From an uncultured delta proteobacterium (lineage in GTDB: Bacteria > Myxococcota_A > Polyangia > Fen-1088): 64,000 nt of DNA. A program made the position numbers and the translations under genes. Under the pieces are notes generated by a model that was not told the DNA's origin, searched no databases, and saw only the letters and a list, made by a program, of their open reading frames with translations. The stretch is taken from assembly GCA_963737265.1 (NCBI GenBank), contig CAVTRY010000022.1, forward strand, positions 96,001-160,000. Reading direction: 5' to 3'. Positions 17,832 to 61,156 of the stretch are shown here, piece after piece (position 1 is the first letter of the stretch; each line of letters opens with the position of its first letter).

Positions 17832-19549
17832 GGTTCTCTCAGCTCGCGCAGGCGCAGGCCCAGTTGGTTGAGTCGCAGATGCACCTTGCGGGCCGCGCCC
17901 TTTTGGCCGAGCAATTCTTGCCCCATGCGCTCCAGATCGCCGTCGGTGGCCCGAAAAAGGGCACGCAAGTATTGGCGCTCGACCTCGGCCGAGATGCGGG
18001 CGAAGCTCGATGCGCGCGGGATCTCGATCTCCAGGCGGCGTCCGCGATCGCCAGCCCCCGGCGGGCGGCTGGGCCGAAGCGTCGGCGTGCGGTCGGCCGC
18101 ACCGCCGACGAGCTTCTCCACCTGGGCATCGGACAGGTTGAGGATGGCGGGCGCGCGCACGATGGGACCGTCCGTCGCCACATCCAAGTGACCAGCCAAG
18201 GCATGCACCAAGGCATTGATGGCAAATAGCCGCAGCTCGCGCAGATTTCCCGGCCAGTCGTGTTCGCCAAGCCGGCGCAAGGCCACGCGCGATAGAAAAA
18301 CGGTGAAGCCCTCGGACACCGCCTCGCGCACGGTTGGGCGGGCGAAGTGCACGATGGAGGCGTCGTCGCGAAAGTCGCTCGGCGTGGGGAAACGGGCGAG
18401 GAACTGCCGCACCAGCGGGCGCAGGCCTTCCGAGCGCAAGGCTTCGAGAAGCAGAAAGCGCAATAGCTCCGACAGATCCTCCCGCCGCTCGCGCAGCGCG
18501 GGCATGTGGAGCCGCGTCGAGGGATCGAGGCGCATGTAGAGGTCGGCGCGAAATCGGCCGGCGCGCACCAGGGCCGCGAGATCCTGGTTGGTGGCCGCCA
18601 CCAGCTTGGGCGCCGCGGGTCGGGGCTTGGCGTCGCCGAGACGCGTGACCTGACCGCGTTCGAGCACCAGCAAGAGCTGGCGTTGCAGATCCAGATCGAG
18701 GTTGGCGATTTCGTCGAGAAACAACGTGCCGCCGTGGGCGTGCTCGAACACTCCGACGTGGTCGTCGACAGCGCCGGTGTAGGCTCCGCGGCGAGCGCCG
18801 AAAAGATGGGCGGGCAAAAGCGTCGCGGGAATGGTGGATAAATCCGTCACCACGAGCGGGCCCTTGGCGCCCGAGCGAGGATGAATCACGTGTTCGGCGA
18901 TGAAACTCTTGCCTGTGCCGGTTTCGCCTTCGACCAGCACCGGCAGCGGCGAACGCGCGAGCACGTCGATGGATCGGCGCAATTCCAGCATGGCCGGGCT
19001 GCGGCCCCAGAACACCGGACCATCCTGCGTGCTGGTGTGAATGGCCAGAACGCGGCGGATCTCGGCAGCGAGGCTGCGTGAATCCACGATTTCGTTCTCG
19101 CAAAAGTAGACCAACGGATCGCACGCCAGGGAAGGCCCGAGCTCGGCACCGGTGGTGGTCAACATGACCACGGGCAGGCTGGGCCAGGCCGCGCGCAGGC
19201 GATCGAGGATGAGCAGGCCCTGGCGGCGGCGCAAATCCTCGACAGCGGCGCGCCGGGCGCGCGCCTCGCTGGGCAGGGCGGACTTGTCCTGTGGTAGGAG
19301 CCGCGCTTCGGGCAGGGCGAAGTGCAGGTCGAGAAGAACGAGGTCGGGCAACGCCTCGGCCTTTTGCAAAACCTCGTCCGCCTCGACATAGTCATGGGCG
19401 CACTTGAGGGTACAGCCGCGGTCACGCTCTTCGCAGACCTGGCAAGGGATCTTGCGCCCACACCGGGTCAAGTAGTCGAACTGCGCGAGTTGGCGATGGC
19501 ACATCTCGACGGTCTGGTCGCGATCGTCGATCACGAGAATTCTAGGCAT
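17828..19549 (-). CDS. Sigma-54-dependent transcriptional activator with atypical receiver domain
   Basis: GETGTGKS, GAYTGA, LFLDEI, WPGNLREL; receiver ILVIDD/LLDL with a Cys-rich insert. Confidence 0.92.
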   Translation of the reverse strand: MPRILVIDDRDQTVEMCHRQLAQFDYLTRCGRKIPCQVCEERDRGCTLKCAHDYVEADEVLQKAEALPDLVLLDLHFALPEARLLPQDKSALPSEARARRAAVEDLRRRQGLLILDRLRAAWPSLPVVMLTTTGAELGPSLACDPLVYFCENEIVDSRSLAAEIRRVLAIHTSTQDGPVFWGRSPAMLELRRSIDVLARSPLPVLVEGETGTGKSFIAEHVIHPRSGAKGPLVVTDLSTIPATLLPAHLFGARRGAYTGAVDDHVGVFEHAHGGTLFLDEIANLDLDLQRQLLLVLERGQVTRLGDAKPRPAAPKLVAATNQDLAALVRAGRFRADLYMRLDPSTRLHMPALRERREDLSELLRFLLLEALRSEGLRPLVRQFLARFPTPSDFRDDASIVHFARPTVREAVSEGFTVFLSRVALRRLGEHDWPGNLRELRLFAINALVHALAGHLDVATDGPIVRAPAILNLSDAQVEKLVGGAADRTPTLRPSRPPGAGDRGRRLEIEIPRASSFARISAEVERQYLRALFRATDGDLERMGQELLGQKGAARKVHLRLNQLGLRLRELREP

Positions 19550-53329: not shown

Positions 53330-54580
53330 ATGGATGTTCGCTGCGAGCGCTGCCAAACCGAATACGAAGTCGAGGACGCTAGGGTAAGCAACCTCGGCAC
53401 CGAGGTGCAGTGTAGCGAATGCGGCCACCGCTTCGTAGCCAGGCGACCCAGCGGCGGCGAAGCGAAGTCCAGAAGCCCGGACGAGTGGCTGCTCGAAACT
53501 GTCGCTGGCCAATCCCATCGGTTTCAGAGCTCCTTCGTCCTGCAAAAGTGGATCATCGAAGGCCGGGTGAAACGTGAAGACAGGGCTTCGCACAGGGGGC
53601 GACCTGGGCAACCGCTGGGTGAAATCGCCGAACTGGCTCCGTTTTTCACCATCGCGGACGACGCTGTCAGGGCAGACGCCTCGCCAGCCACGCCGGCCCC
53701 GGTGATTTCGCCATCCATACCTGCGAAAGCTCCCCCGAATCGGCCCGCGGTGGCGGGGCCGGCAGCTGCGCTGCCGGTCGCTGGCCGACCGGAAGGCGAA
53801 GCTCCGACGGAGCGTCCTGCCTCACCGTCCCCGCTTCCCTCGCCCGCCGATAGCCTGGGTGGGGTCCACCTGGGTGCATTTCCCCAGGCCTCTGATCCGG
53901 GCGAAACGGAGAGCATTCGCATCGGATCGCGGAAGTCTCGCGGCTTTCTCAAGCTGATGCTTACCACGCTCGTGGCGGCCGCGGTCGCGTACGCAGGCAT
54001 CGCATGGCAGCACCAACGCCTGCGCTCCGCGATGATTTCTTCGTCTGGCACGGCCGCAGGGGAATCGCTGCGAGATCACGCGCGTGCAAGCGAACCGACA
54101 CCGCGCGCGCCAGCGGACGACTCGGTGTCGGCACAGTCGCCCGACCGGGGCGACAGCGTGGCTCGAAGCGGACCGTTGGTGGAGCCCGAAGCCGAGAGCG
54201 GCCGGGCGAAAAGCGCTCTTCGAGGCGGGAAGAGGGCCATGGCGATGCGTAAGCCGAAGCCCGAGGCGGGCCACGCCACACGCCCGATTTCGCAGCCAAA
54301 CCGGGCGCAGCCGGAAGCGCCTGAAGAACTGGCAGCGCAGGGCTTTGCGGCCCTGACCCATCACCAGTACCCGCAAGCCATCGGGCTTTTCAAGCGCGCG
54401 CTCGTCGGTAGCCCGCCCAACGGCACCGCCCGCTTCGGTCTTGCGGAAGCCTATCGGGCAAGCGGCCAGAAGATGGCGGCGCTTCTCGCCTACCGGCGCT
54501 ACGTCGACGCCTTTCCCGCTGGACCCAACGCAATCGCCGCCCGAACCCAAATCCGACTCCTCGAAGGCAAGCAGCGCTAG
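53330..54580 (+). CDS. MJ0042-type zinc-ribbon, TM and TPR protein
   Basis: CERC..CSEC, Pro-rich linker, TM helix, C-terminal TPR. Confidence 0.8.
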   Translation: MDVRCERCQTEYEVEDARVSNLGTEVQCSECGHRFVARRPSGGEAKSRSPDEWLLETVAGQSHRFQSSFVLQKWIIEGRVKREDRASHRGRPGQPLGEIAELAPFFTIADDAVRADASPATPAPVISPSIPAKAPPNRPAVAGPAAALPVAGRPEGEAPTERPASPSPLPSPADSLGGVHLGAFPQASDPGETESIRIGSRKSRGFLKLMLTTLVAAAVAYAGIAWQHQRLRSAMISSSGTAAGESLRDHARASEPTPRAPADDSVSAQSPDRGDSVARSGPLVEPEAESGRAKSALRGGKRAMAMRKPKPEAGHATRPISQPNRAQPEAPEELAAQGFAALTHHQYPQAIGLFKRALVGSPPNGTARFGLAEAYRASGQKMAALLAYRRYVDAFPAGPNAIAARTQIRLLEGKQR

Positions 54581-54660: not shown

Positions 54661-56433
54661 TCATTCGGAATGCTCGCGGCGCAAAATCAGGTATCCATCG
54701 GTCTCGAAATCGACTGCGAACGTCGGTTGCAGAAAGCGCACGGGATCGCCTCGCGTCGAGTAGCGATCGAGCACCACGTGGGTCACCTCCGGGGCAAGAA
54801 TCTCGAGCGGCAAGGGCGGAGCGTTCAGTCGCGCCACGACCGCGTTGTCGATCCAGCGCCCATCGGGCAACGGCTCGCCCAGGCGCAGCGCATACCCGAT
54901 GTCCTTGCGACAAACGGGCACGTCACCGGGGCGAAGTGTGTTGCGTAGTCGCGCCACAACCGGCGCGAAACTCGGCTCCGCGTAGTTCGGCCAATTGGGT
55001 GCCGTGGTGTACGTCGCCTGTTGCTTCCAGGCCAGCCCCAACTGCGCCCCCAAGGTTCCGATGATGAGAGCGGCGGTGAGAATCGGTTCGGGCGCACGCC
55101 AACGACGGCGGTTGAGCACGAACAAGATCCCGACGAGGGCCGCACCCAGCACCAAGTAGAAGAGCATGAGAACGCTCGCGGTGGCGTGCTGGGAGACCAC
55201 CAGGTCGTATACGGTCGACACGGGATCGCCTAGCGCGACCACTTGCACCCAGGCGACCGCAATCATCAGGATGCCGGAGACCGCCAGCCTTCGCCAGGGA
55301 GGACACGACAACCGCGGCGCCAGCCACAGCGCAATCAGCAGCGTCAACGGCGCGTACGCCGGATACTCGTACTTGAGAAACCACCCACTCGGCCGAACAA
55401 TCTTCGCGAGAATCAAGAGAAACAGCACGAAGATCGTCAAGAGGTCGACCGGCTCGGGCGCTCGGCGTCGCCATACTTGGCGCACGCGCGATGCCAGGGC
55501 GACAAGGCCGAGCGACGCCCAGAAGGGCGAAACCCACGTCGCGCTGTGAACCAAGGTCTTTCCAATAGTGACGAAGGTGCCGGTGAACCCGCGGCGGGCC
55601 ACGACCTGCGTGAGTACGCCGTCCGCCTTGGCCAGACGGCGCTCGATCGAGAAGGCGATGAAGTAGTCGGCCGGCACGTGCAGCGCCCGGCACAATGCCA
55701 TCCACAATGCCGCAAACAGCGCCACGCCGAAAAGCGCCGCGATCAACAAGGCGGCGACCCGGCGCCAGCGACGGGCCAGGATTTCGTATCCGGCAACGGT
55801 GACGAGGATGTAGGGAGCGGCAAGCTCCTTGGCCCAGGAAACGAGGCTGAGCAGGAGAGCGAGACGCAGGACCCGCCCGAGCCACGAAAGCCCTGGACGT
55901 TCCATGCGTAGGTACTCGTGCAGGAAAAACAACAGCGCCGTCGTCATGACGGTGTTGTCGATATCGAGCATCAGCCCCTCCTGCAGAAGGAAGGGATTGG
56001 CGAGAAACAGAATCGCCATCAGGCTGGCCGTCCACGCGTACCTTTCCGCCTGAACAATCCGGCGCAGGATGCGCAACAAGAGCCACAGGTCGAGAGCCAA
56101 GCACGCGGCGCCGGTCAGCCGGGCTGCCCAGTTTTCCGGCCCGAACAATCGATAGCACAGCCCAATGAGAAAGACATAGATCGAGGCGTGCCAAAGTCCC
56201 AGCTGAACGTGCGGTTGGCCGCCCGAGTTGTATAGCCAGCGATCGGATTCCGGGATGAGGCGCTCGGGCACGTCGCCCATGTAGTAAATCGGCCGCCCAG
56301 TCCGCGCAACCCCCAAACCCGCGGCCGCGCACTCAGCCTCGTCGGTCGACGGCGGCTTGTCCATCGCCGCCGCGCCAGCGACCAGGAACACCACGACGGC
56401 CAACCCGACCAGCAAGAGCGTGCTCCGGTTCAT
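54661..56433 (-). CDS. ArnT/PMT-like (GT-C) membrane glycosyltransferase
   Basis: Many TM helices; DE after TM1; LFG..WAARL, P..Y motifs. Confidence 0.7.
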   Translation of the reverse strand: MNRSTLLLVGLAVVVFLVAGAAAMDKPPSTDEAECAAAGLGVARTGRPIYYMGDVPERLIPESDRWLYNSGGQPHVQLGLWHASIYVFLIGLCYRLFGPENWAARLTGAACLALDLWLLLRILRRIVQAERYAWTASLMAILFLANPFLLQEGLMLDIDNTVMTTALLFFLHEYLRMERPGLSWLGRVLRLALLLSLVSWAKELAAPYILVTVAGYEILARRWRRVAALLIAALFGVALFAALWMALCRALHVPADYFIAFSIERRLAKADGVLTQVVARRGFTGTFVTIGKTLVHSATWVSPFWASLGLVALASRVRQVWRRRAPEPVDLLTIFVLFLLILAKIVRPSGWFLKYEYPAYAPLTLLIALWLAPRLSCPPWRRLAVSGILMIAVAWVQVVALGDPVSTVYDLVVSQHATASVLMLFYLVLGAALVGILFVLNRRRWRAPEPILTAALIIGTLGAQLGLAWKQQATYTTAPNWPNYAEPSFAPVVARLRNTLRPGDVPVCRKDIGYALRLGEPLPDGRWIDNAVVARLNAPPLPLEILAPEVTHVVLDRYSTRGDPVRFLQPTFAVDFETDGYLILRREHSE

Positions 56434-56513: not shown

Positions 56514-58163
56514 TTAAGGTCCTGCAATTCGGAGTTGGGGGCCATGAATCGCTGCCTCGACGGCGGCAAAGTCGGCGGTCGCCTCGGGCACGGCGGCGCG
56601 GCCGCGCTCGAGCAGGGCGCAGGCGGCGTCGCGGCGGCCAGCCTCGGCCAGGACCACGGCCAAGTCGTGATAGGGCTCGTGCCACTTAGGCAGAAGGGCA
56701 ATGGCGCGCTCGATCGCCTCGATGCCCTCGTCGAGCTTTCCCTGGCGCGCGAGGGATAAGCCAAGGCCATTGTGGGCGAAGGCGTGATTTGGATTCTGTG
56801 CCAGCGCGCGCCGGTTGTAGTCTTCGGCGCCTGGGTAATCACACAGCATGAAGCAAACGAAGCCAAGCAGATCGAGAACGGTGAGAGCGCTCGGCGCTTT
56901 TTCGAGAGCAGACAAGAGAAGTCGGTGCGCCTCCTCGAAGCGGCGAGCATCCGCGGCTTCGCGCGCCTTCTGCACCAGCGTCGGCACATCGGCGGATCCT
57001 TCTGTGATCGCCGAGCAGGGCACGATCTTGCCGCCCAAGAACGCCGTCTCGGCTTCGGTCGGATTCTCGGTTAGCAAATCGAGGCGTCCGTGCTTTTGTG
57101 CCTGGTAGTAGAAGCAGAAGGGATTGCCCTCGCCGCCTAGGGCGGCGTGACAGTGGACGGTCCACGTGCAGCCGCCGCGGCAGAAGTCGCGGTAGCGGCA
57201 AACTCGGCAAAATCCCGTGAGCTTGCCTTCGCCGGCCGTCCGGTTGTAGGCGAAGGCGCCCGCCGCGTTCCAGATCTCGGCCAGCGGTTTGTCACGAACG
57301 TTGCCTTCGACGAAGCGAGACTCGCCGTGCATGGACGACGGCAGGGACAGGCAGCCCTTCACGTTGCCGTTGCTCTCGATGCCCACCACCTGGCAACCCG
57401 CGCGGCATCCGATCCAAAACGGTATCTCGCCGCCGTCGTCGCGCAGGCCTTGCTCGGGCTTGCCGTAATAGCCGATGTCGTCGGCGGCGACGGTAAAGAA
57501 TTGGCGCGTGTTGGAGCGACACAAGGCTGCCAGCTCGGGCACCAGCCACAGCAGATCCGCCGGATCCACCACCAGGTCGCGATGCAGTCCCATGGTTCCC
57601 GACGGCGTCGCCAGCTGCACCTGCATGGAGAACACGCCGCGAGCCGCGATGAAATCCCGCAGCTCGCGCAAGATGCGCTGGTTGAGCTTGTTCACGGTGG
57701 TATTGACCGCAACTGGCAGTCCGCCGGCCACGCAGGCATCGATGGCCGCGACGACGCGATCGAACGAGCCCGGCTGGCGAAATTCGTCGTGCTCGCTCTC
57801 AAAGCCGTCAAGGCTGAAGGCCGCGCCACACAGACCGGCCGCCTTCGCGCGCTCGACGTACGCTACGTTCCAGTGCCAGCCGTTCGAGATCAGATTGACC
57901 TTGATACAATGATCGACGAGGCGTTTGCCGATGCGATCCCAATCCGGGTTGAGCGTGGGCTCGCCACCGCTCAGGGTTACCCGCCGACAGCCGAGCGCCG
58001 CGAGTTGGTCGGCGACGCGCAGGTTTTCCTCCAGGCTCATCTCGTCGTCGCGCCGGCTGCCCGCGAAGGAGCCGCAGTGCTTGCAGCGCAGGTTGCAGGC
58101 CAGCGTCAGCTCCCAGACACAGGCCCGAGGCGCGAAACCGACTTGTTTCAGAATCTCGAGCAT
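56514..58163 (-). CDS. Radical SAM/SPASM peptide maturase (splicease/PlpX-like) with C-terminal TPR
   Basis: VWELTLACNLRCKHCGS, SGGEP, GCRAG..GIESNGNVKGCLSL, CRVC..CRGGC, NPFC; TPR tail. Confidence 0.88.
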   Translation of the reverse strand: MLEILKQVGFAPRACVWELTLACNLRCKHCGSFAGSRRDDEMSLEENLRVADQLAALGCRRVTLSGGEPTLNPDWDRIGKRLVDHCIKVNLISNGWHWNVAYVERAKAAGLCGAAFSLDGFESEHDEFRQPGSFDRVVAAIDACVAGGLPVAVNTTVNKLNQRILRELRDFIAARGVFSMQVQLATPSGTMGLHRDLVVDPADLLWLVPELAALCRSNTRQFFTVAADDIGYYGKPEQGLRDDGGEIPFWIGCRAGCQVVGIESNGNVKGCLSLPSSMHGESRFVEGNVRDKPLAEIWNAAGAFAYNRTAGEGKLTGFCRVCRYRDFCRGGCTWTVHCHAALGGEGNPFCFYYQAQKHGRLDLLTENPTEAETAFLGGKIVPCSAITEGSADVPTLVQKAREAADARRFEEAHRLLLSALEKAPSALTVLDLLGFVCFMLCDYPGAEDYNRRALAQNPNHAFAHNGLGLSLARQGKLDEGIEAIERAIALLPKWHEPYHDLAVVLAEAGRRDAACALLERGRAAVPEATADFAAVEAAIHGPQLRIAGP

Positions 58164-58177
58164 CGGGCAAACAACGT

Positions 58178-58633
58178 CTAGGACTTCGCTTCCGGAAAGA
58201 TCGCCATGTAGATCACGACACCGTGTCCGATGTCCGCATCCGCGGCGGCATCGGGTGGCTGCTGGGCCATGTAGCGCACCGCCGGCCCGCTGTCCGGCAA
58301 TTGCTGCGCCATGTACATCGGCGCCATGTAAAGCGCGGCTGCGCCTTGCGCATCCGCGCCAGCGTCGGGCAGCGGTGCCATGTACTTCGCGATCATGCCG
58401 GTGTCTCGGGCGCTGCCGCCGGCCTCGCTGAGATCTGCGTCCGGTGCAAGCTGCTGGTCCGCGGTCGCGACGTCTTTCGCGGTCGCGTGGCCGCCATCGT
58501 CACCCGAGTCCATGGTGGTGCTTCCGCAGCCACCCAAGGCGAGCCCCAAGCCCAATGTCGCTGGCATCAGCATATTGCGCAGTCGGATCTGGAGGAAACG
58601 CTCCACCCGCTGTCGCATTTCTCGCTCTCGCAT
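58178..58633 (-). CDS. Lipoprotein-like putative precursor with five YMA repeats
   Basis: AAGGAG RBS; LALGGC lipobox; AKYMAP, ALYMAP, PMYMAQ, VRYMAQ, VIYMAI. Confidence 0.75.
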   Translation of the reverse strand: MREREMRQRVERFLQIRLRNMLMPATLGLGLALGGCGSTTMDSGDDGGHATAKDVATADQQLAPDADLSEAGGSARDTGMIAKYMAPLPDAGADAQGAAALYMAPMYMAQQLPDSGPAVRYMAQQPPDAAADADIGHGVVIYMAIFPEAKS

Positions 58634-58703
58634 GCTCGCTCCTTCACGTAGGTGAATAACGCCGCGGCCAGAGATTGCGGGCCGCCAACCGTCAGCATAG
58701 ATC

Positions 58704-58719
58704 AGCAAAACAGGTGCCG
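58704..58719 (-). promoter_or_regulatory. Sigma-54 -24/-12 promoter for the precursor-rSAM operon
   Basis: CGGCACCTGTTTTGCT matches YGGCAC-N5-TTGCW; palindrome TCGGCACGTGCCGA at 58727-58740. Confidence 0.6.
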
Positions 58720-58819
58720 CCCGAAATCGGCACGTGCCGAGTCCAGCGCGCTAATAGTTTCAACCAGTTGACCCCGAAAGGCCGACCACGAGTCTCAGAT
58801 TTCCGAGGATAGTCAGCAT

Positions 58820-59776
58820 TCACGACCATGAATTGGAGTTATCAACCGCCTCGACGAGAAACTTCACCTCGGGTTGGGGTGGTTCGTGGTTGGCCCGATG
58901 GGGGCGAAGCAAGATCGGCAGGGCGCGGATGAGTAGAAACAATTTGCGTGCCTTGCTGGTGTAGGCGCGCGTGGTGACCGAATCGTAGCCATTCTTCGCG
59001 ACGACGCGGCCAATTTCGGCGTAAATCAGACGGGCGGCGCGGACGCCGAGTCGACAGTCGGACGGATACATCGTTATGCCGCGATCGGCCCGGCGGTAGC
59101 AGGCGTCGGCCAGCGCCAGCACACGCTTGACCACACTGGCAAGGGCGGGACTAGGCGCGGGACGCGCGAGCAGCTCGTCCACGTCGACCCCAGCCTCCGC
59201 TAGCCAATCCTGGGGCAAATAGACGCGACCCGCGCGGGCGTCTTCGCCGACGTCGCGGCAGATGTTGGTAAGCTGCATGGCCAAGCCCAGATCGCAGGCG
59301 CGCGCCAGCAGGCCGGGCGACCGCTCGCCGAACAGCAAGGTCATCATCACGCCCACGGTGGACGCCACCCGCGCGCAATACGCTTCCAGATCTTGCTGGG
59401 TGGAATAGCGCCGCCGCTCGGCGTCCCACTCGAAGCCCTCGATCAGGGCGCGCGGGATCGCCTGCGGAATTCCGTGAGCCTCCACGACGCTGCAGAACGA
59501 ACGGTCGACAGCGTTTTCCTCGGGCTGGCCGGCGTAGATGCGATCCAGTCGCTCGTGCAAACGGACGATGGCGGCTCTGACGTCGGTTCCCAAATCCACG
59601 GCGTCGTCGGCGACGCGGCAGAAGGCGTACAGCGCCGCGGTACCGTCGTGCAGCCGCTTCGGCAGCAAGCGGGAGGCGGCGACGAAGCTCTTGGATCCAT
59701 TGCGCAGGATCTCGTGGCAGACGCGGAGATCTGCTCGCCGCTGTTCCTCGCTGCTGGCTGGGGCGTTTACGCGCAT
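58820..59776 (-). CDS. crtB: Phytoene/squalene synthase
   Basis: SKSF, LYAFCRVADD, YCARVASTVG, MQLTNICRDVGED, GRVYLP. Confidence 0.9.
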   Translation of the reverse strand: MRVNAPASSEEQRRADLRVCHEILRNGSKSFVAASRLLPKRLHDGTAALYAFCRVADDAVDLGTDVRAAIVRLHERLDRIYAGQPEENAVDRSFCSVVEAHGIPQAIPRALIEGFEWDAERRRYSTQQDLEAYCARVASTVGVMMTLLFGERSPGLLARACDLGLAMQLTNICRDVGEDARAGRVYLPQDWLAEAGVDVDELLARPAPSPALASVVKRVLALADACYRRADRGITMYPSDCRLGVRAARLIYAEIGRVVAKNGYDSVTTRAYTSKARKLFLLIRALPILLRPHRANHEPPQPEVKFLVEAVDNSNSWS

Positions 59777-59780
59777 CGCG

Positions 59781-60683
59781 CTAGCCGCAGTCGAGAGCGG
59801 AGCCCGACCGACCGGCAGCAGTTCGCTGGCGGATCTCTGGTGGGCATAGACGCGCCGCCGCGAGCGACAGAAAATCCTGAACGTCCCTGCGACCGCGGCA
59901 TTCCGGAATGGATTGCATGGCTTGACCAATGAGTCGGTCGAGTTGGGCGAGGGCTCCCGCAACGCCAAGATCCGCGACGGCGCTTGGCCGCGACTTATGG
60001 CCATCTTGATGGATGGGTTTGCCGAGGCGCCCCGATTCGCCGAGCGCGTCCGCGAGATCGTCCGCTACTTGGTAAGCCTCGCCGAGCTGTCCTCCGGTCG
60101 CGCGCCAGGCCTCGGGATCGGCGTCGCCGACAATGGCGCCGGCCACGGCAGCGGCTTCGAACAGCGCCGCGGTTTTCGCGTGATGGTAGGCCCGCACATC
60201 GACGCTGGGCTCGCTCTCCCATGCCTGGCCCGCGGCGATTCCAGCCGGCGCCCCTGCCGCACGCGCCAGCGCGCCCAAAATGGCCGCGGACTTGGCGGGC
60301 TGTGCGGCCACGTGGGATGAAACCGCATCGAACGCCATCACGATCAACGCGTCGCCGACCAGAATTGCTACCTCCTCGCCGAAGCGTTTGTGGAGCGATG
60401 GCTGTCCCCGCCGCAGCGACGCGTCGTCGAAACACGGCAGATCGTCCTGCACCAGGGATGCGCAATGAAACAGCTCAACGGCCGCTGCCGAGGCGTCGGC
60501 CAGGCCGGGATCCGGATCGTCATGCGCCCTGGCCACCGCGAGGCAAAGCCCGGGTCGCACCCGGCCGCCACCAGGAAACACGGCATAGCGGACCGCCGCC
60601 GCCAAGCGCTGGGGACACGGCGGCGCAGTGGCTGCCCGCACAGCCTGCTCCAGCGCTGCCTCGATCCTTGATTCGGGTTCCAT
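59781..60683 (-). CDS. crtE: Geranylgeranyl diphosphate/polyprenyl synthase
   Basis: DDLPCFDD..RRG, KTAALF, YQVADDLAD. Confidence 0.88.
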   Translation of the reverse strand: MEPESRIEAALEQAVRAATAPPCPQRLAAAVRYAVFPGGGRVRPGLCLAVARAHDDPDPGLADASAAAVELFHCASLVQDDLPCFDDASLRRGQPSLHKRFGEEVAILVGDALIVMAFDAVSSHVAAQPAKSAAILGALARAAGAPAGIAAGQAWESEPSVDVRAYHHAKTAALFEAAAVAGAIVGDADPEAWRATGGQLGEAYQVADDLADALGESGRLGKPIHQDGHKSRPSAVADLGVAGALAQLDRLIGQAMQSIPECRGRRDVQDFLSLAAARLCPPEIRQRTAAGRSGSALDCG

Positions 60684-60847: not shown

Positions 60848-61156
60848 ATGGCTATCCAGTCCAATTCGAAATCAAACAAGGCAAAAAACGAAAAGCCCGC
60901 GCCTGCCGCCAAGGCACCCGCGCCTGCCGCCAAGGCGGCACCCGCGCCTGTCGCCAAGGCACCCGCGCCTGTCGTCAAAGCGCCCGCGCCCGCGCCCAAG
61001 GCGACGGCCAAGCCGCGTGCTCCCTACGAGCCAACCCAGGAGGAGATCCAGACCCGCGCTTTCGAGATTTATGTCAGCGAGGGATGCAAGGAAAACAACG
61101 ATCTCGAGTACTGGCTGCGCGCGGAACAAGAACTGCGCGCGCAAGCCAGCCGCTAG
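60848..61156 (+). CDS. DUF2934 protein with Ala/Lys/Pro repeats
   Basis: EEIQTRAFEIY..G...DLEYWLRAEQEL; AKAPAP tandem repeats. Confidence 0.85.
   Translation: MAIQSNSKSNKAKNEKPAPAAKAPAPAAKAAPAPVAKAPAPVVKAPAPAPKATAKPRAPYEPTQEEIQTRAFEIYVSEGCKENNDLEYWLRAEQELRAQASR

Follow-up and report, generated by a model that had tools for sequence, protein, structure and literature searches.

What becomes of a putative lipoprotein whose only tyrosines lie in five Tyr-Met-Ala units, when its gene stands directly upstream of a gene for a radical S-adenosylmethionine (SAM) enzyme? This question is raised by a gene pair on the minus strand of a 64,000-nucleotide stretch of DNA (the window; contig CAVTRY010000022.1, positions 96,001 to 160,000) from the genome of an uncultured member of Polyangia (Myxococcota), a soil or wetland myxobacterium. 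The pair consists of a precursor gene and, 14 nucleotides further on, a gene for a radical SAM/SPASM enzyme with a C-terminal tetratricopeptide repeat (TPR) domain. An earlier note, made from the sequence alone, had read it as a system related to the spliceases, with a noncanonical Tyr-Met recognition motif and a membrane-anchored substrate with several sites. That interpretation is right in kind, in that a splicease-related enzyme is paired with a multi-site, lipoprotein-like substrate having a non-Gly residue after Tyr, and the sequence comparisons described here suggest that the pair is probably a variant, with Tyr-Met sites, of the known splicease-type protein modification. The coordinates of both genes and their spacing were found to be as the note had claimed. 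The features of the pair are as follows.

58178..58633, minus strand: precursor gene, 151 amino acids plus stop (ATG at 58633, stop at 58178), with a homologous open reading frame (ORF) in 37 of 37 loci
58574..58633, minus strand: leader of the precursor, a charged helix of residues 1-20, MREREMRQRVERFLQIRLRN, conserved in 28 sequences and helical in the AlphaFold2 model
58526..58573, minus strand: hydrophobic segment with a lipobox-like L-G-G-C, the Cys of which is Cys36, from the alignment of 28 sequences
58181..58525, minus strand: disordered core rich in Ala, Asp, Pro and Gly with the Tyr sites, as judged from its composition, a predicted local distance difference test (pLDDT) score of about 50 and no secondary structure
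58376..58387, minus strand: site 1, K-Y-M-A, residues 83-86, aligning with KYMAQ of orthologues
58322..58333, minus strand: site 2, L-Y-M-A, residues 101-104, from sequence and alignment
58307..58318, minus strand: site 3, M-Y-M-A, residues 106-109, from sequence and alignment
58265..58276, minus strand: site 4, R-Y-M-A, residues 120-123, in the column that reads RYGAQ in loci L052 and L067
58202..58213, minus strand: site 5, I-Y-M-A, residues 141-144, the C-terminal site, with Y142, A144 and P147 invariant in 28 sequences
56514..58163, minus strand: radical SAM/SPASM-TPR enzyme gene, 549 amino acids plus stop, with Pfam and NCBIfam matches and orthologues of 71-93% identity
58074..58097, minus strand: CX3CX2C radical SAM cluster motif (C23, C27, C30), invariant in 19 orthologues
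57108..57407, minus strand: SPASM domain, C253-x3-C257-x8-G-x4-C271 and C319-x2-C322-x5-C328-x3-C332, with Cys residues invariant in 19 orthologues
56529..56981, minus strand: C-terminal TPR domain, approximately residues 395-545, ten helices, from Pfam TPR matches and modeled helices

The precursor is built of a charged N-terminal helix, a hydrophobic lipobox-like segment and a disordered core that carries the Tyr sites; it matched no Pfam family and no NCBIfam family at an E value of 0.01 or better. A longer ORF call for it, which starts at an upstream TTG, comprises 176 amino acids. The lipobox and the five xYMA motifs described in the earlier note were both recovered: the protein contains exactly five Tyr residues, all in xYMA, with K, L, M, R and I at position -1. 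We determined how often such a repeat occurs among the six-frame open frames of at least 60 amino acids in the whole genome (9,345,213 residues). The count of YMA was 104, and the precursor, with five, was the sole frame with three or more, so that its repeat is far beyond chance. Nor did any other open frame in the genome contain two or more matches to the site motif that might point to a substrate acting in trans.

In the alignment of 28 precursors, leader residues M1, R2, E3, M6, R7, R9, E11, F13, R17, L18 and R19 were invariant, as were P24, A25, G28, L29, G30 and C36, and the residue before Cys36 was always G or A. By inspection, the segment has the features of a lipoprotein signal peptide, namely a charged n-region, an h-region and an invariant Cys preceded by G or A, and we infer from them that Cys36 is lipidated and that the precursor is cleaved by signal peptidase II. 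A Tat signal was also considered for the leader and was rejected by inspection, there being no twin arginine before the F-L of the leader.

To what extent the two genes belong together was judged from 41 loci, comprising that of the window, 10 in genomes of its genus and 30 in metagenomes. Four of these lacked the N-terminus of the enzyme and were left out. In all of the remaining 37 loci, a Tyr-motif ORF was located directly upstream of the enzyme gene, which supports the proposal of the earlier note that the upstream ORF is a multi-site substrate, and the leader was intact in 33. Of the four in which it was not found, L058 lies at a contig end, the leader of L064 is split over frames, L066 departs from the leader pattern, and L012 (G008:C25) retains only the last site (..LYLAQLPVPRS), at the end of an unrelated open frame of 414 amino acids, which may mean that the precursor gene has been rearranged or has taken up an insertion. 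The enzyme orthologues, 71-93% identical, came from one Polyangia genus and from metagenomes, and the module was abundant in peat and wetland Polyangia metagenomes.

Site statistics were obtained from 29 distinct precursors of 33 loci, which together contain 114 Tyr residues, 2-6 in each. The residue at +1 of Tyr was M in 81 cases, L in 11, S in 9, G in 6, Y in 3, A in 2 and I and T in 1 each; position +2 was Ala at 105 of the 114 sites, +3 was Q at 70 and P at 27, +5 was Pro at 94, and -3 was Val at 56. Other aromatic residues were scarce in the core (Trp 1 and Phe 16 among 2687 residues). Mean column identity over the whole precursor was 39% in the alignment of 28 sequences, with the core poorly kept, and invariance was confined to columns of the leader, to Cys36 and, in the last site, to Y142, A144 and P147. 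Comparison of the sequences thus established the constancy of Tyr, the only residue never replaced at aligned sites. It also established the equivalence of Met and Gly at +1, given that one aligned site reads RYMAQ in most orthologues and RYGAQ in L052 and L067; FYGA or FYGT is present in L016, L052 and L054. The residue at -1 was kept by position across orthologues (K, D, R, L/V/I), which would fit warheads with different protease specificities.

The enzyme matched the Radical_SAM, SPASM (residues 253-322) and several TPR families of Pfam. Its best NCBIfam matches were TIGR03913 (256.4 bits) and TIGR04103 (252.3 bits), with TIGR04133 third at 128.2 bits. The motifs VWE.TL.CN..C.HCGS and G.E..G..KGC.S., which the earlier note had likened to those of PlpX-type spliceases, were present both in the enzyme and in the Nostoc "nif11-class peptide radical SAM maturase 3". 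Identity was 37.9% to this Nostoc member of TIGR04103 and 38.2% to an Azospirillum member of TIGR03913, both so named in RefSeq; the Azospirillum member has the two motifs as well. The relation to spliceases thus stands to the extent that these two are the nearest curated families, whereas membership in them does not, with the scores far below the cut-offs and the enzyme in a separate clade. We take IPR026482 to be the same family as TIGR04103, in agreement with the name that RefSeq gives to the Nostoc gene next to a Nif11 precursor. In the available part of a review, PlpX is assigned to IPR026482 (PMC11002830). No match over the TIGR04103 cut-off was found in 41 genomes of the order, in which the scores formed two tiers, at approximately 500 bits in other genera (group E) and approximately 250 bits for the enzymes related to that of the window (clade A below) and their paralogues. 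Two scans of genome contigs with degenerate patterns of the PlpA splice tags (tags from PMC10533398) returned no stretches, and an alignment-based contig scan returned only Myxococcota group E loci, of which 80 were kept out of 566.

We constructed a tree of 38 radical SAM/SPASM domains with IQ-TREE, with rows picked by hand from the loci available and with a distant radical SAM enzyme of the same genome as root; a quick tree of 35 rows agreed with it. The TPR-bearing enzymes with YM sites were monophyletic (clade A, support 100/98) and joined clade B, with YG or YA sites, and clade C, with YL or YV sites, at 100/100; these three in turn grouped with clades D and F, which bear YG sites, at 84/88. 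The TIGR04103 member from Nostoc and the TIGR03913 member from Azospirillum fell, with group E and an enzyme of Aureibacter, into a separate clade (99/100). Four tandem-pair enzymes and two fused enzymes lay on long branches, their placement being unsure.

Enzymes of clades B, C, D, F and G are 45-61% identical to the enzyme of the window and lack the TPR domain. Their substrates share with clade A a charged helix, a hydrophobic stretch, G-C and then a disordered core with Tyr sites. The sites of the relatives, with the approximate identity of their enzymes to that of the window, are as follows.

Clade B, approximately 61% identity: LYAAP, LYGLG, AYGLG, VYGTG, VYGMP
Clade C, approximately 54% identity: PYLAP, PYLVV, YVPLP
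Clade D, approximately 48% identity: VYGAD, IYGAM, AYGIV, AYGIM; also YP and YA
Clade F, approximately 50% identity: AYGVPD (two copies), AYGIPS
Clade G, class-level relatives, sites in the enzyme's own C-terminal tail: FFYGPVP, GWYGPPP, CDYMGPS, NDYGVPI, PEYGIKP
Group E, approximately 38% identity: downstream zinc-ribbon/membrane protein with xYG sites at its C-terminus, for instance ending PPYGIAPAYGIAAMYGAPP

Given that the sites of the sister clades are mostly xYG, this is the common state around clade A, and Met, Leu, Val and Ala after Tyr appear to be derived states. Enzyme-substrate fusions were observed in L022, L023, L024 and L025, the tails of which contain a lipobox-like segment ending in G/A-C followed by xYG or xYM repeats; the internal lipobox of the clade G fusions raises the question of tail cleavage and lipidation. 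Group E (L029, L030, L031 and the 80 loci L084-L163) scored approximately 500 bits to TIGR04103, still under the cut-off, and was widespread in Myxococcota, including the cultured Polyangium jinanense SDU13 (L151). Tandem pairs of divergent radical SAM/SPASM enzymes on long branches, with no obvious adjacent Tyr-repeat ORF, were seen at L032 (G001:C9) and L033 (G001:C7), and similar pairs in G005, G006, G012, G041, G055, G056 and G059.

The earlier note had suggested that the fused TPR domain might replace a separate partner with a RiPP recognition element (RRE; RiPP, a peptide made by the ribosome and then modified post-translationally). This suggestion found no support, given that the TPR-less sister clades B, C and D share the leader architecture; the TPR domain is for that reason unlikely to read the leader, and the comparison argues that it is a clade-specific add-on. 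Among the 120 matches listed, the domain was recorded for homologues of at least 73% identity and one of 61%, whereas homologues of 375-400 amino acids and 58-66% identity were without it.

A search of solved structures by sequence in the PDB returned no splicease, the best radical SAM matches being SkfB, PqqE and MoaA, and we obtained structure models with AlphaFold2. The enzyme model (19-row alignment, mean pLDDT 71.9) showed a confident barrel and helices at 393-540 with a pLDDT of >85, whereas the SPASM region, at <50, is too weak for reasoning about the active site. In the model of the precursor (28-row alignment), a helix spanned residues 4-22 with a pLDDT of 62-66, and the rest was at about 50. 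Prediction of the precursor-enzyme complex from self-built alignments gave ipSAE values of 0.46, 0.47 and 0.52 in three runs, with the best of three controls at 0.00; the runs agreed in at least 16% of contacts with a partner pLDDT of at least 56, and no interface was returned. Of 80 solved complexes, 58 reach the mark used for such predictions, as do 2 of 110 mismatched pairs; at ipSAE values of 0.60 or below, those that reach it are just 7 of the 80 solved complexes and both of the mismatches that pass. The prediction is therefore weak support for binding of the precursor by the enzyme.

Upstream of the pair, two short elements were conserved.

58639..58644, minus strand: ribosome-binding site AAGGAG, 5 nucleotides before the precursor ATG, kept in all upstream regions shown
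58703..58718, minus strand: sigma-54-type -24/-12 element GGCAC-N5-TTGCTG, GGCACCTGTTTTGCTG, the sole match in the window and conserved upstream of orthologous pairs

The sigma-54 consensus that the earlier note had reported before the pair was confirmed in this way. Shuffling gave an expectation of 0.14 matches to the pattern GGCAYN5TTGCTG, with one match reached by 14 of 100 shuffles, and the window has one; the weight of the evidence lies in conservation. Among 28 upstream regions of orthologues, each 100 nucleotides or longer, 27 keep GGCAY-N5-TTGCTG, 41-88 nucleotides before the ATG and within otherwise varying sequence; the exception, L010, has TTCC instead of TTGC. The conserved element would be an active sigma-54 promoter. 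The genome encodes one rpoN and 39 sigma-54 activator (enhancer-binding-protein) domains. One activator domain is located in the window at approximately 18524-19006 on the minus strand (G000:C22:114524-115006), about 38 kb from the pair, and another lies approximately 6 kb from a paralogous cassette on contig C7 (C7:163562-164062). A terminator-like hairpin with a T-run (58714-58733, minus strand) overlaps the -24 half of the element and may end the upstream phytoene/squalene synthase gene. We favor the promoter reading of the element because it is kept in loci without the upstream synthase gene. In a wetland metatranscriptome (X1), three short contigs 90-99% alike to the window covered 58254-58676 (the precursor gene and 43 nucleotides of its 5' leader), 58003-58163 (the start of the enzyme gene) and 57123-57287. 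These contigs belong to a relative and are a hint; they show neither transcription of the pair nor its start or level.

The neighbors of the pair in the window are as follows.

58820-60683, minus strand: SQS_PSY-family (phytoene/squalene) synthase and polyprenyl synthetase, upstream neighbors, with listed ORFs that overlap by 224 nucleotides
54661-56433, minus strand: weakly PMT_2-like (GT-C) membrane protein of 590 amino acids, downstream neighbor, not kept beside the pair
53330-54580, plus strand: zinc-ribbon/TPR protein, not kept beside the pair
60848-61156, plus strand: DUF2934 protein, not kept beside the pair

The overlap suggests that the SQS_PSY-family synthase probably starts later than its ORF. 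Among 16 loci whose neighbors were compared, a GT-C/PMT_2-like gene downstream of the pair was found in none, and a phytoene/squalene synthase gene upstream was found in 2, the two closest ones. The GT-C membrane protein and the carotenoid-type genes were therefore ruled out as parts of the module, and, given that flanking genes are not kept, the conserved unit that emerges from the comparison is two genes and their promoter. The ORF list of the window showed no small ORF after the enzyme gene. The same genome contains two paralogous cassettes, L002 (G000:C7:168603-172532), whose precursor has YL, YV and YM sites, and L003/L004 (G000:C11:634346-638499), whose Gly-rich precursor has MYAAP and LYAAG sites; the enzyme frames of both are interrupted by frame changes or TGA, and these copies are either pseudogenes or the product of indel errors in the assembly.

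What, then, might the enzyme do to the precursor? The explanation that we favor, and that we consider probable by a slight balance, is that chemistry like tyramine splicing, known from the nearest characterized relatives of the enzyme, takes place at the xY(M/L/S/G)A sites, ahead of Sec export and lipidation. The sigma-54 promoter would drive the precursor and enzyme genes as a self-contained enzyme-substrate module. The cytoplasmic enzyme would bind the precursor, probably through the leader helix, as in the binary RhaX/RhaA splicease, and would act at each Tyr, excising all but the Tyr carbonyl carbon (C8H9NO, about -135.06 Da per site) and rejoining the backbone as an alpha-keto-beta-amino amide with the side chain of the residue at -1 (Lys, Leu, Met, Arg or Ile), with Met taking the place of Gly in known splicease products. 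The unfolded product would then be exported by Sec, signal peptidase II would remove the leader and Cys36 would be lipidated, so that the lipoprotein signal peptide would double as a RiPP leader. A chain of electrophilic ketoamides tethered to the membrane would result and, by analogy with the spliceotides, would be a protease inhibitor of multiple specificities. We infer the excision of tyramine from homology.

Several observations weigh against this explanation. The enzyme scores lie below the curated cut-offs (252.3 against 725 bits for TIGR04103 and 256.4 against 591.75 for TIGR03913), the enzyme falls outside the 99/100 clade of TIGR04103, TIGR03913 and group E, and with an identity of about 38% the chemistry may have changed. 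The link to spliceases runs through RefSeq-named members, and the rows of the tree hold no experimentally characterized splicease. At the locus, no gene for a Y protein, RRE, protease or transporter is attached to the pair, and a BLASTP comparison of the Y-like protein of Nostoc with the precursor gave no alignment that would make the leader an equivalent of the Y protein. The n-region is unusually long, at 20 residues, and Cys36 sits one residue beyond the usual window for lipoprotein signals (PROSITE rule). Given that radical SAM enzymes are cytoplasmic, modification must precede Sec export; such pre-export modification of a disordered chain is plausible. Finally, the splicease literature, in the parts available, describes XYG sites, whereas none of the five sites here is YG, and it contains no counterpart that we found to a +2 Ala (92%) more conserved than +1.

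This last feature bears on whether the pair is a true one in which Tyr is targeted by another radical chemistry, such as a C-C or C-O cross-link of the cyclophane type, joining the ring or beta-carbon of Tyr with a nearby residue, beta-hydroxylation or side-chain cleavage. The identity of about 38% to members of TIGR04103 and TIGR03913, in a separate clade and below the cut-offs, leaves room for it, and we found no description of TIGR03913 chemistry in the literature searched. Within clade A, +2 Ala (105/114) and +5 Pro (94/114) are strongly kept, and the Tyr-x-Ala unit is reminiscent of the motifs of cyclophane-forming radical SAM enzymes. Position +2 is not kept, however, in sister clades of the same architecture (YGLG, YGAD, YGIV, YLVV), +1 varies freely (M, L, S, G, Y, A), and Tyr is conserved family-wide with no partner for a cross-link. 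Canonical xYG moreover dominates clades D, F, G and E, and the flanks resemble the PlpA tags in the available part of PMC10533398. We therefore regard another chemistry at Tyr as possible but doubtful.

The same data speak to the role of the upstream protein itself, which might be a lipoprotein partner or a mere operon neighbor of an enzyme that acts elsewhere, for instance on a small molecule or on a protein bound through the TPR domain. Other proteins are the usual ligands of TPR domains, the support from the complex prediction is weak, and NCBIfam contains TIGR04133/TIGR04134, an "rSAM with lipoprotein" pair of undefined relationship. Such a role would nonetheless leave it hard to see why a fast-evolving disordered core keeps only its Tyr motifs while their number varies from 2 to 6, why relatives fuse a Tyr-repeat tail onto the enzyme, and why TPR-less sister enzymes keep the same type of neighbor; nor does the genome offer a second frame with two or more site-motif matches. 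We consider it very improbable. That the module has lost its function and persists as a decaying or silent remnant seems to us scarcely credible. The interrupted enzyme frames of the C7 and C11 paralogues would fit decay, and the RNA evidence amounts to three short contigs of a relative in one metatranscriptome, but the frames of the window copy are intact, many orthologues of the enzyme show 71-93% identity and keep every cluster Cys residue, and conservation extends to the leader, the Tyr sites, the ribosome-binding site and the promoter element.

If tyramine splicing does take place at Tyr-Met, Tyr-Leu and Tyr-Ser in clade A, the sequence scope of ribosomal installation of beta-amino acids and ketoamides would be wider than the XYG sites that known spliceases are described as requiring, which matters for protein engineering with splice tags, and the modification would be used on membrane-anchored proteins with the signal peptide as leader. 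With two genes, the module is also a simple system for tests, and control by sigma-54 points to a regulated role, which may be developmental or predatory. More tentatively, and with greater doubt than belief, we suggest that a splicease-like radiation in Myxococcota rewrites lipoproteins in place of secreted peptides, with the signal peptide as a leader that signal peptidase II removes, and that clade A, splicing at Tyr-Met, Tyr-Leu and Tyr-Ser where others splice at Tyr-Gly, would yield a surface-tethered, lipid-anchored and sigma-54-switched protease inhibitor of multiple specificities with up to six alpha-ketoamide warheads, having Lys, Asp, Arg, Leu or Ile, kept by position, at P1 and Met at P1'. 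Scott et al. 2022 mined radical SAM-SPASM enzymes by the frequency of adjacent YG motifs, which gave candidates from 189 genera, with 27 pairs confirmed (PMC10849128, available in part); mining by YG count would miss YM-type systems. In the literature searched we found no splicing at non-Gly sites or on lipoproteins, and the splicease types, which Scott et al. 2022 defined, may already include lipoprotein-type families of Myxococcota.

Among known systems, we compared the pair with two types beside the spliceases. The TIGR04133/TIGR04134 pair, hypothetical equivalogs of NCBIfam found mainly in Bacteroidota, also places a radical SAM/SPASM enzyme beside a lipoprotein; the enzyme here scored 128.2 bits against a TIGR04133 cut-off of 425, and the precursor matched no NCBIfam model at an E value of 0.01. 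In TIGR03913/DUF1843 (GDL-motif) systems, such as that of plasmid pAB510c of Azospirillum sp. B510, precursors stand in tandem upstream of the enzyme gene; DUF1843 is termed a domain of unknown function in the available part of PMC10994174. The Azospirillum paralogues ..PYGPAMVEAISTGDL and MYMATVTDAIAKGDL have YG and YM in one register (L165), and in ..RPYGPAMVEAISTGDL and MYMATVTDAIAKGDL Tyr lies 11 residues before GDL in both; DUF1843 paralogues on a plasmid of Aureibacter tunicatorum (L166) have LYAAG, MYAAS and PYGAG. The occurrence of YG, YM and YA in one register indicates that a non-Gly residue at +1 is natural elsewhere in the superfamily, and the shared register of Tyr suggests that it is the modified residue in TIGR03913 systems too. 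The Tyr-Met motif, which the earlier note had called noncanonical, is thus so to the extent that Met stands where relatives and some orthologues have Gly, but a non-Gly residue is not unique to this system. The DUF1843 precursors differ from that of the window in that they are small helical domains, lack a signal peptide and have one Tyr site, near the N-terminus; the precursor here has neither a GDL motif nor a Pfam (DUF1843) match, and the TIGR03913 enzyme groups with TIGR04103 and group E, apart from clade A.

Alpha-keto-beta-amino amides are formed when spliceases cut the equivalent of tyramine out of XYG sites; type I enzymes need a Y protein, whereas a leader helix is predicted in the Y-protein site of the binary type II enzymes (PMC11414181, available in part). 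Splicing is seen as a loss of 135.06 Da, and its peptide products act as inhibitors of serine and cysteine proteases (PMC11626197, available in part). The pair described here differs from these systems in that Met follows Tyr at 81 of 114 clade A sites and Gly at 6, so that the adjacent X-Tyr-Gly of spliceases is mostly absent; in that a signal peptide of the lipoprotein type, with its long charged helix and no Nif11 or NHLP match, stands in place of a Nif11/NHLP leader such as that of the Nostoc precursor, whose C-terminal end is ...SIALYGLPPELF; and in that the enzyme carries a C-terminal TPR domain and belongs to a separate clade. Like the spliceases PlpX-PlpY-PlpA and PcpXYA of Pleurocapsa, RhaX/RasX and RcsX of Rheinheimera, and the TIGR04103 enzymes, the enzyme combines a radical SAM domain with a full SPASM domain, and as in these systems the precursor gene lies directly upstream and encodes multiple Tyr sites with small or hydrophobic residues before Tyr and Pro a short distance after it. 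The two-gene arrangement without a Y protein and the helical leader resemble the type II spliceases as described in the available text of PMC11414181. The likeness extends to the sites themselves: the PlpA splice tags PIRP-L/G-YGLPI and AVAA-G-YGVVFP, listed in Table 1 of PMC10533398 (available in part), are similar to (A/V)-V-A-x-Y-M-A-Q-h-P, the consensus of clade A, down to the Pro at +5, and share with it the layout of a small or hydrophobic residue, any residue, Tyr, any residue, a hydrophobic residue and Pro.

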